From: Sarea resinae
Lineage: Eukaryota
DNA length: 64,000 nt
Direction of reading: 5' to 3'
Assembly (NCBI GenBank): GCA_026026165.1
Contig: JAPEUD010000050.1
Coordinates: 62,001-126,000 of the forward strand
Below are positions 7,696 through 49,200 of the stretch, piece by piece (positions within the stretch are counted from its first letter, which is position 1; each line of letters begins with the position of its first letter). Position numbers and translations under genes: made by a program. The notes under the pieces were generated by a model, which worked only from the letters and a program-made list of their open reading frames with translations, was not told the DNA's origin and did not search any database.

Positions 7696-9696
7696 ATCTG
7701 TAAGGTACTGATGAGTATGGTCAGGTGAACTAGGAGTGTTGGCTGTGGAGAGTTGAAGGGGGATATTACTTCTTGTATATGCTCCTACGGCTAGGAAGGG
7801 CCGCTGAACGCCTATTCGAGGTATTCGAGGTATTCGAGTGCAGGACTTCGCGCAAAGTCGCAAAACAGATGGCTTTAGATTATGTATCATGAGAATGTTC
7901 ACTCGGGGGGCGAAAGAGGCGTTTCGATCATAGACAGTAGGAATACATTATAGATTGGACGATTCGCAGATCCCAACGGATGAATAAGGTGCCCCGTCAT
8001 TGAAGATCGAAAGGGAAGATAGAAACTGCCGTATCGCTTCTCACCGCCTTCTCCGCACTCACCACTCACCAACAACGTCCCCCTCCATCCAAAAGTGCAC
8101 CTCTCGGTCACAGTGTTAGAAAACACCGCGGAATACCGATCAAAAAACCTCTTGCAGTGAATAGCGCGACTATAGCACAGGCAGAGTCTTTTTTCATTTC
8201 GATCAAGCAATTGCCACGGGAGAACGATAGACTGAAATGCATTCAGTGAATAGCATTGACCGACAAAAGCCATGATGATCTGTTCCAGTAATCATCACGG
8301 AGGATCGGTAGATTAACATCCTTTTGTGAATGGCCTTTCTTCTGCTAGAGGACCGACAGTGCGAACCATATACCTTATCAGGATATCCGGGTATCTATTC
8401 ACCAGCATGCTTTTCCGTGGACCGATAAAGCGCACAGAACCACGTTCATCTATTCAAACAGAAAAGCGCGGTCACCTAGATAGATAGCTACTTCCTTGTA
8501 CTATAGATTCACTGCGCCTGAGCACAGAACCAGGCGGGAGACCGACCTCTAGAGACTTAGGTGGTGAATCTGCTTATTATGTATAGCCCTTTCCCTCGTG
8601 ATCTAATAGAACATATAATCATAATTGCGACCCACCTCCTTCTGTCCTGATACAGGTAGGAAGCGTATAATATTTGGTTCGCAGCGCCATCCTCTAAACC
8701 TGGCTACCTTACCTACCTTAACTATCGCGATAGTTTACATTTTACACGTAGGTCTAAAGAATATTGGTCCCCCCCCTCATTGAGGTAGATCGTCTTCTGC
8801 GAGAATAAACAATGGCTAGTAGCAGGCATCCCCGAGCTCTTAAGCCCTAGACATAGGGTAGGTGCGCCAAACATGCGATATATCGGTCTACCAAGAGTAT
8901 TGCGTGAATAAACAAGTGAACAGTAGCCTTCCCACACCGGAAACAAGCCAGGTTCAAGGAGGTAGATAGAATGAATGCCGTCTGTGGCCTGGCCTATTCA
9001 CTATAGCATCTTAGCAGCCGATATCCGGCACTTCGAGGAACACCTCCAGCTCTTGTTCTTGTTAACGCGTCAGGAACACTCAGTTGGCACCTTTCACGCT
9101 TCACCCACATATCCGCTTCCATACGCGCACACACAGACATCTGCAGGAATGTTGACGTCCTCAAGCCCATTCCAGCGTCTGGCTGCAAACAGCTGAGACC
9201 AGAATAGCAACGAAAGCTCGCATTCTCCCTCTATTGTTAATAGCGGGGAGAGAGGAGACAAAGAGAGGCTGGGTGATAAGAGAAGAGTAGGGAAGACGTT
9301 CCCGAGGCCCGACGCGTTCATCAAGGGAAGAGAAAAGTGAGTGAGGACGTATCATACTGGCATTTTGGAGTGATCTGACGCGGGTCTCCACAGCTGGCTT
9401 GGCTTGGTTTGGCTGGTTTGTCTTGACTCAATATTCGATTTGGAAGGAACGCTGGACCACGCGAGTAAGTGCTCTCTAGTCTATCTAAATACAAAGCTAA
9501 GCACTGGCTAGAGCTCGTGCATGATATCTAGGTACCCAGCAGCCATAAGTGGGAGGAAAGAGGAAGCACAAAGCAGGACCAAAACATCAGATTCAAAGGC
9601 GGATAACAGACATCGGCTCAGCGCTATCATAGGGAACCTGGACACCTACATTCAGTTCATTGGCCTATACCTCATAAGCGACAGCCACCAGACAAG

Positions 9697-41478: not shown

Positions 41479-44400
41479 ATTATCAGCCACTAGATCGGCT
41501 TGTCTCCACAGATTTCATGAAGAGCGTAGATTTGACTCCACTTCGACCAAGAGAGAGATATATATTGGGATCAATCGAATAGGAAGAAAGAAATCATTTC
41601 CACATCGTGATATGAAACCCCAGCGAGGCTCGTAGTGGTATGGCACTAAGCTTCCTAGGGAAGAAAAGCTTTCGGCTGGTTGGTTTCGCAGCGACGCATT
41701 CAGAAGGGTGGCAACTCGTGATAGGTAGTTAGGAAGACAGATCGCCCTCAAATCGGCGATGTCGGCCGGTATACCAGTAGGATCGATGATGTGTGGGCTT
41801 TATCTGAGGATGCTTGAACGTAAAAGTGCCAGGATTGCGGAGCCTACAATGTTTGCAATCGTCAGACGGGGTCAGGGAAAGCAGTCTGACGCGAGGGTCT
41901 GAACAGGGAGGAGAGGGATGAATCTGCTGCAGATTCGCGGAAGCTGGAGAGGTAAATCGCTTACCGTAAAGGCCAAGAGTAGGTGTAGGAAGAAAATAGA
42001 AAGGAAGAATGAAGAAAGATGTATGGAGAAAACGGGGGAATAAGGAAGGACGTGGTTGATGTCTTTGGCTTGTCCGTGTTCTGTCTGTCCGTCGGTCTTG
42101 TCTGTCCTGGGGATATCCTCTCGCTTGAAATGGATGGACGGTTGGATGAGAGCCAGGGAGGAAGTAAGGATACTTGATCATTCAAGTCACTCTCCGCCTG
42201 GACAGCAGTAGATTGAGTACTTGGCCGAGTACCAGCAGGAAACCTCCATTATTTGCAATGTTCTAATCTCCAGGGCTTTTGCAAAAGTACAGGAACCTCA
42301 CCGAGGTACCTACAAAGTATTGTACCTACGTCTACACCACTAATGAGGGCGCATCCTGGGTACCGAAGGTACGTCAAGTATCTCAAGTACCTTGACCTAC
42401 CTTACCTACCGGTACCCAGTAGGTGATACGCCCATAATCATCATCGTCACATCGCAAATCATCCGCAAATCGTATGGATAAGGTAATAGTCGCTAACTTG
42501 CTCAATATACTCCGCTACGCTATGCCGCTATATCGAGGGGAGCATTATGATATTCTCTACATGGACTTCTCGCTATTGCATCCACCCACATCACCACTGG
42601 AAAGCTTGGAAGAGATTGTTGCTAGGTGAACCTTGAAGGCCAGGCAAGGTACGATAGACCATACGCCCATCATTCACCTCATTTTTGAGGCTTCTTTCTG
42701 GCCTGCTCCCGTTATCATGCTGATGCCAACTGGTCCCGCCAAATCAGGTCTTTGGGATAGGCCTCCGTACGGTGCTCGCATGGTTGGCTAGAAGGGGTCA
42801 AGCTTCGTCTTAGAGCAGCTGGCCTGTGCTCGGGACGACAACACAGAGGATATCAGCGAGACTCCCGTCGCGTTGGATGGGTACCGCAATAGGTACCTAC
42901 AAAGTGCACGCAATCCAGGTGAAGCCCAAGTGTGTCTTTCAGGTACCTTGACGTTGAGATCATCGCTTATCCTATGTACCCTACTAATCTTAACCATCAC
43001 GATTGTCACCTCACCACACTCCCTCCCTTTGTTCCTAGAGCTCAAGCTGCAGTCTTCGTGGCGTGGTAGAGACATTGTGGTCGGATGGAATAGGGATTCT
43101 GCATCGAAAGAGCATGATCCTTTCGTACCCTAGACGGAGAGGGTAACATGGAAAACGGTGGAAACGATGCATCACAAACGGGGCCCTCGGACGACTTTCG
43201 CCCATTCTCGCGTCAGAGTTGAGCTTGACTGCCGGGGGCCCCTCCTGATGGCGAATAAGATGCGCATCAGTCGGTCTATGCTTTGCCTTAGTCTTGTCGG
43301 CTACATGCAGGTCTGTCCATGCCTTCGTCGATATCCGTTGAAGTACGAAGTTACTCCTCTCGCCACTTGCACTTCCATTGCGACCACGGTACCGAGGACA
43401 CAGTAAAAGCGCCACCTCTCGACCACAGAAGAGGGAAATGCATCGACCATGGATGCCGTAGAGTACGTCTACCTTAGTCGTATGGATGCAGAACAGTATC
43501 GACCTTCAATCCACGCGCTCGGGCAGCGAATTCGGGGGCACAGAGCGTCGTCATTACTTTCCAATCCTCCTCTTGTAGTTCTCCCCTCTCTGATCAGCGA
43601 AGCCGAGCTTCTACTACTCGGAGTATGTGCCTTGGGCGGGAACCGAAGCGAGAAATCTGTGTTTCTGGTTGGCCTGTTTAGCTACAAAGCTATTGCAGAT
43701 CGGCCTGTCAAATGAGATGGTGTTCTCCTAACGAGGCCATAGCGCGGCCAGTGCCTCTAGAGTACTGAGTACGAGTACTCCGGAGTAGAGTATTCTCAGG
43801 TTCATCATACACTGACCGGTGGCACTCAAACGGTGCAGCCAGGCAGGGACTAGATTCTCTCCTCCTCGAGTTCGGAGTACTGCGCAGTAGACACGCTTCT
43901 TGCCACGCGGCCCAGGGAATCTGTCTCGAGAATCATCTGGTGGACACTAACCGCTGTCGTCAGGATCCTCCTTGTTCGAGGTCACCTAACTCCTCACCTG
44001 CTGCCCGTACCGTACTTGCTGCCTCCACTCTTTCCTGGCGACGAGCAAGGCCTTGGATATGCAGTGTCCCTCATGGATGAATTTGGGCTTTTTACCCCAG
44101 ACTTCTCTATCTAGAGGGGTCTTACGCTAAGATTTACAGTGACTTGTATCTCTGCAGGCATGAAATCAGGCAAAGCAACATGGAGTGCCCGCTAGTCGAG
44201 ACATCATTGTGCATCCGTCACGAATCGATTACTCGACGGCAGCTCTCAACGTGGCTGTCTGGACCCGAAGTCCTTTTACGTTGTCGTTGCCCTCCTCACG
44301 GACCACGTACATGTGGCTTCGAGGTGCTCTATCGATGGGGACTGGCAAAGTGACCGATCATATTTCGACGTTGAAGTCATGCGTTTTGACCAACGGTTCT

Positions 44401-45721
44401 TCACTGAGGTTGCACCTTTGTACCTACTAATCATCGGATGCCTGGCAGCATGCGTAGCGGCACAATAATGTTCCTCACTTACACTTTATACAGACCTCGC
44501 CTCCACCTCAAACATACACATACTAGGGCACTATCTCCTATCAGTCGCCTTTTTGATCCGCCTTTAGAGACACGCCTTTGAAATGGTCTAATCGTGGGTG
44601 ACCAATCTGATCATCTCATCATATTCATGGTCCTCCCCAAGGTTCTTCCTAGGGGTGACTAATAAGCAGCCGTTGACATATTTAGCCGGCCCGAATGTCT
44701 TTGGCGTTGAACATGCTGTCTTTTTGGTCTAGACACCACCGCGGAAGCGTCTGTAAATGGCTGGCTGTATGGAATACATGACGCCGCTCTCATGTGGAAC
44801 ATGCCTAGCAATTACGGTAGGCTAATGATAGGAATGCTAATATTCGTTGACAATAACCATCAGACATCGCTCTTCAGTAGCCATGCCGCAAGAGTCAAAA
44901 AGGTACTTTGCTCTGGTTGAGACGATGGGCATTCATGTCGCACCTCCCTGGTTATATTAGGCATGTCGGCCATACGCTTGATCACTTTCCGGAAGAACGC
45001 ACCCAAACAGCATAATGGGAAGACGAATTGTCACAAAATCGACCCTGTAGCTATTGGTTTGTATTCCATCCTATGGCAGCTCTTGATATTTCCAGCTCAT
45101 CGAGTTCAGTCCTAGTCAAACCACTTTGGTGCTGACCCGCACCGTATATGCGCATGTCTCAGTCATCTGTTGCAATTTCAAGAACGGACTCTGCCAGGAG
45201 AAGACATTGTGTTGCCGTTGATCTATACTCGGTCCAAGCAAGATGCTGAGGATGATAAATTCACCGGAATATCTGATGAGGTGTAATAGCACATCAAAAA
45301 ACTCCATGATAAATCTTGCATTATCCGGTGATGATAATGATCTGATATAGCTAGGTACCTAGGTGGGTATTCAAGACAATCGCTGGTCGTTGTCAAATTT
45401 GAGGACAAGTAAAGCTAACATGACACATTACAGAGGCAGCATTTTGTTGGAGACATTTTCTTTGAGGCTATCTACCGCGAGATTCTAATTAGAGTACAGG
45501 GTACACTGAAATATCGATCAAGGCCAACCACCAATCACCCAGGATGACTCTACTGTACGGCTTGCTGTGGGACCTGGATGGGTTTTGGGTACCTGTAATT
45601 CACCAAATAGGAGTTACCCGAGAACGACTACTCCAAAGGACAAGGGTAAAAAGAACACGCATCATCCCCTTTCATCTCCAATCAGAGCGTAACAAGATAA
45701 GTTGGTTCATCACCGGCTGGA

Positions 45722-45799
45722 AAACCTCAGAATCAACTGTACGTCATCATGGTATTTGCAGCAAGCAATCAGAGAAACACATTTAATCATCATCGGCTT
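45722..45799 (-). ncRNA. Candidate box C/D snoRNA-like RNA (about 78 nt), target unknown
   Basis: AAGCC-G-ATGATGA(45793-87)...CTGA(45772-69)...ATGATGA(45750-44)...CTGA(45730-27)-GGTTT; full C/D'/C'/D set with 5-bp terminal stem in canonical kink-turn spacing. Confidence 0.45.
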
Positions 45800-46143
45800 G
45801 AAAGCCACTCAGACACGGGTTATTTTGCAACAGGGGGAAGAAGGGCTCTTTGATACCCTGGTGCACCTATCTTTGAGTGGTTTCTGCTTTCGATAGAAGC
45901 CTTCGGAGACCGGTGCGCCGATGCACTATGTGAGAATACGGGGTCAGCTTCTTCATCATCCGTGGATGCCCTTTCATCTGCAATCAGATTGAAACACGGA
46001 TAAAAGAACAATGATGATGCATCGGTATGTTGCGCTCGTACCTTTCAGCTTATGTAAGTCGAAACGGACGATAGCGCAGCATAAGACCCTGAGTTTCAGG
46101 TGGGGTGGAATAGGTGCTCAAACACCGTTAGGAGGGTGTGCCA

Positions 46144-46261
46144 TGACAAGAGAATCGAAGGAGAGGAGGGCAGGGATCTGGGCTGTATTTATGCTGTCTT
46201 CTGCTGCGGCGAGTGATCTTTTACGCATCCGAGTGATCTTTTTGGCACTCGAGTGATCTTT
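46144..46261 (-). promoter_or_regulatory. Promoter-like block: 3x AAAGATCACTCG at 20-bp period, TATA-like CATAAATA, CT-rich tract
   Basis: Plus-strand CGAGTGATCTTT at 46210, 46230 and 46250; TATTTATG at 46186-46193; minus-strand pyrimidine tract 46144-46175. Confidence 0.5.
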
Positions 46262-49200
46262 CGGGCATCTTCTACGCAGCTTGCTTACCATTGGTCAGAT
46301 CTTCTGTATCTCTAGCATTGTCTCGGTTGAGGCTGTTTATGTTGCTTCAGATGGGAAGGAGACGTCTTTCATTCAAAGCAGGCAGGAACGACTTCTACTT
46401 GGGGCGCAGACGCCAGCTCGCGAGACGAATGCGGACCTCAACACTCGCCTACCATCTCAGAGAGTGGTTGGCTCTGGAAGACTAGCTTTCTTTCGGTTGG
46501 AAACTATCTGCTTCGAATTGGCGGTAGAAAGAGACACCCATCTTCTACAACAGGAAGGAAAGACTTCTATTCTATTGCGCGCGAACACCATATTGCGCGA
46601 CAAAGTTGCCCATCTGATCTCGCTTGCGCCGCCAAAGGACGCGAATAGCTCTCGATATTCAGCTCAGAATGTGCCTGCTGTTACTCACCCGTTGAGCATT
46701 TTATTCATTCTCTTGCGTCCATTTCCGCGCGTGTCTTGCTAGATGAGTTTTCCACACCCTGAAGATGCTGTCCAGGAACGATGGTGACCATCTTTGTCAG
46801 TCACAAGATCGATTATTGTATTGCATCACACAAGGACCGTTGCTCAAGCCGATTGCGGCACATTTCTCTCCCCAGACAAGGCTGACTTGATCAGCTTACA
46901 AAACGCTCCGGTGCATCATGCGAGGACGATATCAAGGCTGACCTTTGCATATCTCCGTTGCAGACAAGATCTACGTGGTAAGCTCTCAGAGCTCACGCTC
47001 AAGCGCATTGAAAATGTGTAACCCCTAACATCTACCCATGCTCCTATTGTCATTCTCAGGAGCCTCTCTGGCCATCACAAGGGAGGCGTCGGTTTGGCGC
47101 AGCATTACAGCCCCTATATGAAAACTAGCCACTTCTCATATGCATCCCTTGCCAACCGATGCTCATAACCGCGTAGCAAAAAAAAGCTTGTGATTTGTAA
47201 TACAGCATAGACGCAGAAATGAACGTTTCGGACCTTTGCAGATATCCAAGATCAGTGACTCAAGGCTTGCTCTCCAGTTGAACCTCTTCGCCCGCGAGTG
47301 TCCAGGAGCCATGTCTGCTGTCTGTTCTCTGGCTGCTGCGGAGTCACCCTTCCCTCCACAATTACGATCCTACGTGTATGAGAAGCGGTCGATAAATACG
47401 CATTCACTCCAGGTATCTACCAATATCCAAGAAGAATTCTCTTGCGATGATACAGAATGTGGGCCATCTCTTCAATCTATCAAGCGTTTCAACCGTTACT
47501 CGAGTGATAGATTAAGCTTGATCTCTACCTCCCGAGTACCTCTACTGTTTACATGTCACCCGTCCCTTTTCCCCTTTTCAGTCTTTGCCTTTCTCTTTCC
47601 CTTCGCCTTGCCTTCCTCCCAGCGACCAACTGGCCTTTTCGCCTCCTCGTCTAGCCAGCTTTCTCCACGATGTCTGCAACGTCAAGAAAACGATTCAACC
47701 CTGCAAGCCTGGAGGCCTTTGTACGCAGTACGATGATGATTCGAGCTTTCTCCGCACGCGAGACGCTAGGGTCAGGAGGGATGGATGCTCATGCACTCCA
47801 CACTGCAAAGTTGCGGTACCTCGTATCCATCCACGGATCCATTACTTTGGTGATACGTTGCCGACGGACTACTGCTGTACTCGGTACCTACATAGTAGTC
47901 TCCAGACATCAGCATGACAACGGGCACCTTGCCCCAAGGCGCAAGGATCATCGGAACCGGCTGCGAGATGCAGTAATCGCCTTCTCCGGCGATACTGAGT
48001 CGTGCAGGATCGCGAGACATGTCGACACCATCGGGGAGGACTGTGTATCCAGTGCAGGTAGCGTAAAGTGCGGAGGAAGGTAGGCAAGGTCGGTAGGTAC
48101 TCGTCGATGTCGAGCATCATCCTGCTGTCAGTGCGTCTCTCATGGTCTGTTCCGATGCCCCCTCGAGCATCGTCGATCAGAGCCATCACCCACGGACGCC
48201 CTTGACGAGTACTCTAGGATAAAGACATCTGTCCCCGCTCTCTCCTAGACGTGGAAGATGCCGGCGATGACATGTACGGTCTCGTCAAGTCAGTCTGGGT
48301 AAAGGCATTCATTACCTTGGTCCGCGGACTCCCTACTCCTATGGTAATGAATTGTTCGACTGAGGTCTAGATACTTCGATGAAGTACAAAGGGGTTGCAT
48401 TGGCGGGGCACCCTCCATGCCGTATCTCTCTCTCCCTTGCCGGCCCATGATCGTCCCCCCTCTTCGAGAACGGAACCCAACAACTTGACTTCTGCCAATA
48501 CCACCTACTATCTACCTCGAGAGCGAATTGCTCACTCAGCTCAGCTACCAGATACGGGAAAGACGCCGCAGTCGTATATCGCACGGGGCGTTCCAGGCCG
48601 GTCTCCAGAGCGTGTTGGGGTGTACCAAGTAGATTCACGATGCCCCTCCAGCCGGAAAGTCGATTTTCGTTTGGTGCTTTCGCCGCGTCTATCGACCTAT
48701 GAACGGTCCGCCTAGTACTCCCGAGTACTGTTGCTCCAACGACGCCTTTGTTGACGGTCGTGATCCACACGGATCGCGCGATGCCCTCGGGTCAGATTGC
48801 ACGTTGCATCGACATTGATTAAACCACTTTGTCAGCCACACCCCATCTTCCTCCAACTCGTCTCTTGATTGGCGCTTCTGGGTTCTATCGCCTTGATCTG
48901 GCAGCTTTAGGCTTGATAGCTGTAAATATGCCCATATCGTGGCTGAATGCACCCCAGTCTCCGAGGGATGTGCGCGTCCCCGTCGATCCGCTCTCACGTG
49001 GCGGGTCTGTGTGTTGATTCTGCGGCCCTCCTCGCGGCCTTTGAGAACCTCATCCTTTCTCACCAGTATTGATATTGTACCGGCGCAGAGCGTGAAGGCC
49101 TCAGATTCCCAGTCCCACTGCTGGCAGATTGTACTTCCTCGTCGACAGACTGGACCTCTCGCGTCAGATCAAGTTGCTGTACTTCGCTTGCTTAAGAGGT

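Follow-up and report, generated by a model that had tools for sequence, protein, structure and literature searches.

Examining a 64,000-nucleotide (nt) stretch of the Sarea resinae genome (contig JAPEUD010000050.1, positions 62,001 to 126,000; hereafter the window, whose own coordinates are used throughout), we found on the minus strand a tandem run of alternating C-box and D-box motifs, which is probably best explained as one orphan box C/D small nucleolar RNA (snoRNA) gene, here called unit c, accompanied by decayed tandem paralogs from an ancestor directed at large-subunit (LSU) ribosomal RNA (rRNA). The array is thus most likely an ordinary kind of gene and not a new class of eukaryotic guide-RNA array, with the strictly alternating C and D boxes representing the appearance that a single canonical snoRNA takes on when one or two duplicates abut it.

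An earlier note on this DNA had reported such an alternation at a period of about 42 nt, with two types of D-to-C linker (X and Y), and a regular-expression (regex) scan reproduced its coordinates. These are CTGA D boxes, each preceded by T, at 45812, 45772, 45730 and 45685, and C boxes at 45793 and 45750 (both ATGATGA), 45713 (GTGATGA) and 45665 (ATGATGC), with D-to-D spacings of 40, 42 and 45 nt and C-to-C spacings of 43, 37 and 48 nt. Its descriptive points held as well, such that the type X linker is present twice (GGCTTTCAAGCC and GGTTTTCCAGCC), the CTGATTG that begins type Y occurs in three copies (45772, 45685 and 45987), the C-to-D segments measure 14, 13 and 21 nt, and the region is without an open reading frame (ORF) of note. 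Further boxes lie upstream on the minus strand (ATGATGA at 45959, CTGA at 45987 and 45947); of these, the ATGATGA at 45959 is the closest C box to precede the first D box (45812), whose ~40 nt of upstream sequence contain none. Evaluating the layout statistically, we counted 23 RTGATGA on the minus strand in 64 kb, 4 of them inside 253 nt, and found that a cluster of 4 within 260 nt was reached by only 1 of 300 dinucleotide shuffles. The full C-D'-C'-D pattern (RTGATGA-N9-25-CTGA-N3-35-NTGATGN-N9-25-CTGA) gave two overlapping matches, exclusively at the array within the window, with at least one match in 2/300 shuffles and two matches in 0/300, so that the alternation is not chance and the boxes are genuine box C/D-type motifs.

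One of the two pattern matches passes a stem test, and a further scan, which required a C box followed after 40-220 nt by a D box and a stem of 4 base pairs (bp) or more around the two, singles out 45799-45722; the alternative, overlapping four-box frame at 45756-45676 has no terminal stem. The resulting 78-nt candidate, unit c, reads AAGCC-G-AUGAUGA-UUAAAUGUGUUUCU (14 nt)-CUGA-18 nt-AUGAUGA-CGUACAGUUGAUU (13 nt)-CUGA-GGUUU, its terminal AAGCC/GGUUU stem comprising 5 bp including one G-U. In the minimum-free-energy (MFE) fold of 45830-45640, this stem carries an outer 4-bp extension across a 3x3 internal loop, with GGCU (45806-45803) pairing to AGCC (45718-45715), and unit c with its outer stem measures 92 nt. 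In this fold the two type X linkers, previously taken for small hairpins (GGCUUUCAAGCC and GGUUUUCCAGCC), are more plausibly the two sides, 5' and 3', of unit c's extended terminal stem. With its boxes, stem, size and non-coding host locus, unit c qualifies as a eukaryotic box C/D snoRNA at the level of sequence. A permissive Rfam scan of 45000-46800 pointed the same way, in that 8 of the 12 sub-threshold matches were C/D-box models overlapping unit c on the same strand, four of which aligned end to end over 45719-45799 (snoR77Y 23 bits, sn2903 19.6, snoR117 16.8, sR1 16.5). The best of these, snoR77Y, stands against a cut-off of 52 bits, and the scores fall so far below the cut-offs because the boxes and stem alone match.

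Pairwise local alignments with 300 shuffles each identify two neighbours, unit d and unit a', which on this evidence are paralogs of unit c. The alignment of a' (46032-45940) with d (45727-45630) scored 47 and that of c with d scored 42, with 0/300 shuffles as good in both cases, and a' with c scored 33 (4/300 as good); a three-unit MAFFT alignment misplaced unit c and was not used. An independent repeat search also found a 31-nt repeat, 84% identical, in the unit a' region. Common to units a', c and d is the order (A/G)CCG, C box, guide, CUGAUUG, linker, GAUGAUG, and the segment upstream of c (45900-45803) could not be aligned with any of them (shuffles as good in 75-237 of 300 cases). Unit d consists of a C box (GUGAUGA, 45713-45707), a 21-nt guide (45706-45686), a D' box (CUGA, 45685-45682) and a C'-like box that is either AUGAUGC (45665-45659) or GAGAUGA (45678-45672), after which a regex scan of the minus strand found no CUGA. 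Unit a' carries AUGCAUCAUCAU (46022-46011) at the expected place of box C, and because this lacks the GA dinucleotide the unit should, by established kink-turn rules, form no kink-turn there. Its guide, UCCGUGUUUCAA (46000-45989), lies 1 nt from CUGA (45987-45984) and is followed in order by CAGAUGA (45980-45974), AUGAUGA (45959-45953) and CUGA (45947-45944). The D' guides of c and d would be diverged versions of the a' guide, and that of unit c is a diverged homologue of it. At 9586-9610, a 25-nt stretch resembling the region of the a' guide was inspected and judged chance, and a dispersed-repeat search of the 64 kb found no other copy of the array locus.

These alignments bear on two suggestions of the earlier note. 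Its alternative of a decayed 85-bp duplication matching the boxes by chance was half right, since the local alignments do reveal decaying paralogous duplicates, but the boxes would owe their presence to the fact that the unit being copied is a C/D snoRNA, and not to chance; the alternation would arise from the tandem duplication of that unit with hardly any spacer. Its other proposal, in which equivalent guide units would form an open-ended array or a concatemer, was not supported, as four boxes and a terminal stem come together in unit c alone. Framed as a hypothesis, this proposal would make the array one functional multi-kink-turn RNA in which every D-to-C junction is a kink-loop and every C-to-D segment a guide, and strict C/D alternation over four periods, the second overlapping four-box frame (45756-45676) and the capacity of the X linkers, from their sequence, to fold alone as small hairpins would all suit it. 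We regard it as highly improbable given that the second frame is the one without a terminal stem, the last unit has no D box and the first D box no nearby C box, the units are diverging paralogs instead of equivalent repeats, the fold of 45830-45640 shows no thermodynamic signal (z = +1.38), and the features of TIGR arrays, the prokaryotic analogy that had been raised, are not matched. According to the description in PMC12045711, TIGR arrays consist of two alternating 8-12-nt repeats and 9-nt spacers (exceptionally to 12) in 36-nt units repeated 5-15 times, possess minimal 'CCA' and 'UG' boxes and an adjacent Nop-domain Tas gene, and occur in prokaryotes and their viruses; the authors stress an evolutionary link to box C/D RNAs. 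The likeness here is that two kinds of junction alternate around variable segments, whereas the differences include full kink-turn boxes, guides of 13-21 nt, units of ~85 nt (half-period ~42 nt) numbering at most 3-4, a eukaryotic genome with spliceosomal introns, and no Nop-domain ORF among 20 frames scanned, which are part of the window's ORFs. The analogy therefore breaks down in repeat, spacer, unit size, Tas gene and host alike.

We evaluated the guides for rRNA complementarity against ribosomal DNA (rDNA) drawn from 110 eukaryotic loci from metagenomes, which were fetched with the LR3 primer; five rDNAs served in the target tests. Rfam confirmed LSU, 5.8S and small-subunit (SSU) rRNA in the three loci tested; an LR3 primer match on a viral contig was rejected as rDNA, the contig possessing a tmRNA gene and no rRNA hit. 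Among the 110 loci, the ITS1F site occurred in L072 alone and the ITS4 site in L015 and L072 alone, and with so few fungal primer sites the target tests rest on the conserved rRNA cores of mostly unidentified eukaryotes. The sole guide to stand out was that of unit a', which pairs 12/12 with TTGAAACACGGA of eukaryotic LSU rRNA and was equalled by only 0-3 of 100 shuffled guides across the five rDNAs. The LR3 primer used for selection covers this target site, so how many loci carry it does not count as independent evidence; what it shows is that the segment is LSU rRNA. The D' guide of unit c achieves at best a conserved pairing of 8 bp with LSU GAAACACG (7 Watson-Crick and 1 G-U), and the guide of unit d reaches 11 bp (1 G-U, 2-nt offset) with the SSU 3'-end sequence CGTAACAAGGT, where 8-12 of 100 shuffles were as good in 4/5 rDNAs and the fifth, L013, gave 13 bp with 1/100 as good. 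With no convincing rRNA match for either of its guides in the five rDNAs, unit c is for now an orphan, and the earlier suggestion of orphan guides is to that extent borne out.

The target of the a' guide lies close to that of a known snoRNA. In Neurospora crassa, U18/snR18 (Nc CD46A/B) pairs with LSU AACACGGACCA and directs 26S Am635 (PMC2780460); the LSU segment involved, GUCUUGAAACACGGACC, is also paired by the a' guide and, less strongly, by the c guide, U18's own AACACGGACCA being adjacent to the a' site. The register is nonetheless shifted. By the D'+5 rule, and as derived from the CD46A sequence and Table 1 of that paper, a' points to an A four nt upstream of Am635 and c to an A two nt upstream, both in LSU rRNA around GUCUUGAAACACGG. 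The linkers show no clear likeness, and the U18 model was absent among Rfam matches with E up to 10 in 45000-46800. Taking the shifted register and the missing model match together, unit c is not U18. On methylation at the predicted LSU positions, the main texts of PMC5824354 and PMC8583080 contain nothing relevant.

The surroundings of the array revealed no coding signal. Across 45116-47021, none of 12 stop-to-stop frames matched a Pfam family above cut-off (10 blank, 2 sub-threshold at E 0.023 and 0.041), the frame at 46281-46742 had no Pfam family, and the 74-amino-acid (aa) minus-strand frame had no homologue. For a 97-aa plus-strand frame, the sole notable hit was a repetitive 3,212-aa predicted protein (P0121) at E 9e-15, obtained by summing nine weak repeats; BLASTP gave E = 69 per P0121 repeat and no alignment to the second hit. 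The repeats of P0121 are ~304 aa long, and it looks like a translated tandem DNA repeat. With no Pfam hit above cut-off, no real homologue and no dispersed copies in the window, a coding or transposon origin of the array was rejected.

The locus is present in a public RNA library. The evidence consists of assembled contigs of one public run labelled as a wood-decay metatranscriptome, which contains 48% of sampled words of 44800-46700 and whose contigs place the array in RNA-covered, non-coding DNA. Of 30 bins spanning 42500-48500, 20 were without cover by RNA contigs, although the uncovered parts in this run (X1) are not evidence of silence, and the uneven cover together with a spliced contig indicates RNA rather than contaminating DNA. 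Upstream in plus-strand sense, the loose ends of one 279-nt contig define two GT-AG introns with a 253-nt exon between them that is closed in all three frames, so that 45044-45446 is a spliced non-coding or untranslated-region transcript running towards the array. A scan for minus-strand splice sites yielded pattern matches alone, none of them backed by a contig joint, and PMC4138321, in the part consulted, gives no usable promoter motif for the lineage. Inside the array, the strain of the RNA run differs from the window by three substitutions and one 1-nt insertion, none of them in a box and too few for statistics. At 45781 the G-U of the c-LSU pairing becomes G-C, and the change at 45962 leaves the unit b stem (see below) paired, as G-U.

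Several observations weigh against a working unit c. Neither of its guides rises above shuffles: across the five metagenomic rDNAs, 14-97 of 100 shuffled guides score as well as the D' guide, and 2-88 of 100 as well as the D guide. Over the array, the contigs run colinear with the genome and reveal neither strand, ends nor size, nor any 78-nt species, and the only strand information nearby, that of the two GT-AG introns, is plus, which means that the array contigs could be plus-strand RNA antisense to unit c. The strain comparison is limited to one strain at 98-99% identity. Between c and d, boxes and stem are more alike (27/31) than guides and linker (22/35), but this contrast is weak (Fisher p = 0.047) and the alignment is itself anchored on the boxes. 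Gaps of ~3 nt between units are unusual for separately processed snoRNAs. No Rfam family reached gathering score in a covariance-model check of the 64-kb window, as is expected for a snoRNA with new guides. No ortholog of unit c was seen by eye among the 55 N. crassa C/D sequences, although a match may exist among the ~7,700 sequences of the 'fungal snoRNAome'.

From such points one may build the main rival reading, in which the whole array, unit c included, is a dead relic of a tandem-duplicated, LSU-targeting C/D snoRNA (a U18-region guide), unit c is simply the copy that still has all its boxes, and the RNA cover stems from the plus-strand transcript or from read-through. We consider this possible but unlikely. 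It accommodates the demonstrable loss of a box in 2/3 of the alignable units, the lack of a significant rRNA target for the unit c guides, the D' one of which looks like a degraded a' guide (8 versus 12 bp), the plus-strand origin of the sole strand-informative RNA evidence, and the recognition of snoRNA pseudogenes as a class (PMC12309372). What it leaves unexplained is that unit c has kept all 22 box nt and its 5 + 4-bp stem whole where the guides of the paralogs have strongly diverged, and that the strain difference inside the c guide is compatible with pairing; moreover, orphan snoRNAs are known in N. crassa (CD53 and CD55, Table 1 of PMC2780460). More distant still is the hypothesis that the functional product lies on the plus strand, or that there is none, the minus-strand boxes then being a by-product either of a non-coding RNA from the plus strand or of a short tandem duplication without RNA-level meaning. 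On the minus strand, chance would very rarely produce four boxes plus a stem, and the weak C/D-like candidates on the plus strand (45245-45351 and 46006-46096) that, together with the GT-AG introns beside the array, would recommend this hypothesis have imperfect boxes or no D'/C' boxes, and none has a target; we judge it decidedly improbable.

Returning to the orphan snoRNA gene as the preferred explanation, its working can be drawn from established box C/D small nucleolar ribonucleoprotein biology. Unit c would be transcribed, from the minus strand, inside a longer non-coding precursor, and its stem (AAGCC/GGUUU plus GGCU/AGCC) would join boxes C and D into a kink-turn binding Snu13, with D' and C' forming an internal kink-loop. 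The methylase Nop1 (fibrillarin) would assemble on these motifs together with Nop56 and Nop58, exonucleases would trim the precursor down to the particle and its stable snoRNA, and the segments immediately preceding D' (14 nt) and D (13 nt) would select, for 2'-O-methylation, the nucleotide paired to the fifth base. Tandem duplication of a unit of the c type, with almost no spacer, would have generated the alternating boxes, the copies now decaying. Unit d would have kept C, D' and C' and lost D, and unit a' would have lost box C while keeping the presumably ancestral guide, complementary over 12 nt to LSU and pointing four nt upstream of the U18 site.

Among known systems, the box C/D snoRNAs of filamentous ascomycetes come close, for instance the 55 N. 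crassa C/D snoRNAs (Nc CD RNAs) with listed lengths of 69-212 nt (Table 1 of PMC2780460), mostly intronic and often in non-coding host genes with short ORFs alone (PMC2780460), 45 of the 55 genes following an arrangement in which each intron carries a single snoRNA (section 7 of PMC2780460). Unit c resembles them in its RUGAUGA and CUGA boxes, internal D'/C' boxes, short terminal stem, length in the 70-100-nt range, the existence of orphans and a non-coding transcribed locus, and its 78 nt and layout fall inside the N. crassa range. It differs from them in having no rRNA target of at least 10 bp and in its abutting decayed copies as opposed to one snoRNA per intron. Guide fragments gave 0 hits in the supplementary text on the N. 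crassa snoRNAs, and searches with unit c patterns in prokaryotic and viral contig collections gave 0 hits too, these being non-fungal sets uninformative on conservation. Tandem or polycistronic snoRNA clusters and snoRNA pseudogenes offer a second comparison, since there as here local duplication yields paralogs whose guides drift and whose boxes persist for a time; unlike such clusters, the array has spacers of ~3 nt, neighbours that share stem halves and one intact unit alone. The separation and recombination of functional elements and the origin of isoforms by duplication are discussed in PMC2780460.

If unit c is expressed, it would extend the snoRNAs of a poorly sampled fungal lineage by one orphan box C/D member and would represent a clear case, confined to 400 nt, of a unit duplicated in tandem, of lost boxes and of drifting guides, bearing on the turnover of fungal guide repertoires. 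A more speculative view, which we think rather unlikely, is that the locus is a snapshot of guide birth, an LSU-directed C/D snoRNA having been copied head to tail so that neighbours share stem halves, with unit c under selection and its guides drifted to new non-rRNA or lineage-specific targets, or else still methylating LSU two nt from the U18 site via the unusually short 8-bp duplex; its precursor may then be a multi-kink-turn RNA whose relic boxes compete for, or load, the core proteins.

Table 1. Positions in the window of unit c and its parts, of neighbouring units and of RNA features.
Feature	Coordinates	Strand	Basis
Unit c, candidate 78-nt box C/D snoRNA	45722..45799	-	sole full C-D'-C'-D match in the window that has a terminal stem
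Box C of unit c, AUGAUGA	45787..45793	-	regex scan
D' guide of unit c, UUAAAUGUGUUUCU	45773..45786	-	best rRNA pairing 8 bp with LSU GAAACACG
Box D' of unit c, CUGA, exact consensus	45769..45772	-	regex scan
Box C' of unit c, AUGAUGA, exact consensus	45744..45750	-	regex scan
D guide of unit c, CGUACAGUUGAUU	45731..45743	-	no conserved rRNA target found in the five rDNAs
Box D of unit c, CUGA	45727..45730	-	regex scan
Outer 5' half of extended stem of unit c, GGCU + UUC; part of first type X linker	45800..45806	-	MFE fold
Outer 3' half of extended stem of unit c, UCC + AGCC; belongs to second type X linker and doubles as unit d's 5' flank	45715..45721	-	MFE fold
Unit d, paralogous partial copy	45636..45714	-	paralogy to c and a' by local alignment
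Unit a', relic copy	45944..46022	-	local alignment, repeat search, rRNA pairing
Unit b, weak 161-nt candidate	45805..45965	-	C AUGAUGA 45959, D CUGA 45812, CCAC/GUGG stem, 2-nt offset
RNA-contig cover (45109-45362, 45500-46242, 46213-46868)	45109..46868	not given	98-99% identity
53-nt GT-AG intron of spliced non-coding RNA	45057..45109	+	loose contig end maps uniquely to 45044-45055
71-nt GT-AG intron, CTAAC branch site	45363..45433	+	loose contig end maps uniquely to 45434-45446

A further, weak candidate is unit b, for which no D'/C' boxes and no rRNA target in the five rDNAs were found. A C box, a D box and a 4-bp stem would come together by chance for ~1 C box in 8 by our estimate, so that this combination lends unit b little weight. 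An inverted repeat (45802-45820 / 45865-45883; 19 nt, 74% complementary) pairs the D box region at 45812 with the interior of unit b and would compete with its C/D kink-turn, and the 1-nt insertion of the RNA-run strain falls after 45877, inside one arm of this repeat.

Two plus-strand segments carry C/D-like motifs. At 45245-45351, inside the 253-nt exon, AGGAUGA ... CUGA ... AUGAUAA or GUGAUGA ... CUGA are flanked by a 4-bp offset stem, the boxes being imperfect and no rRNA complement being found in the five rDNAs. At 46006-46096, a perfect AAUGAUGA, the reverse complement of the ruined a' box C, lies in a near-palindrome around ATGCAT and is followed by CUGA 71 nt downstream with a 4-bp stem; neither D'/C' boxes nor, in the five rDNAs, a target were found for it, and the RNA-run strain has a 29-nt insertion directly after 46095.

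Turning to the wider setting, 42200-49100 forms a gap of ~7 kb without any frame of at least 170 aa, between the last minus-strand frames (to 42181) and a Kelch-repeat frame (from 49129), and within this gap the RNA cover of the one run is limited to 45109-46868. The large frames of the window belong to eukaryotic families (Pkinase, BRO1, Kelch), the kinase gene spanning 37-40.5 kb and the Kelch gene 49.1-52.3 kb, with 77% identity between the BRO1 frame and its closest relatives, there is no long bacterial-type gene array, and a scan of the 64 kb found no transfer RNA. Judged by these families, the short introns and the wood-decay label of the RNA run, the window appears to belong to the genome of a filamentous fungus. 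Roughly 190 nt upstream of a' in minus-strand sense, a 20-nt repeat (CGAGTGATCTTT...) stands three times in tandem (46210-46269), with 80-85% identity to its first copy, and an RNA contig ends within these repeats with a loose end that is absent from the window, which suggests a strain difference in copy number or sequence.

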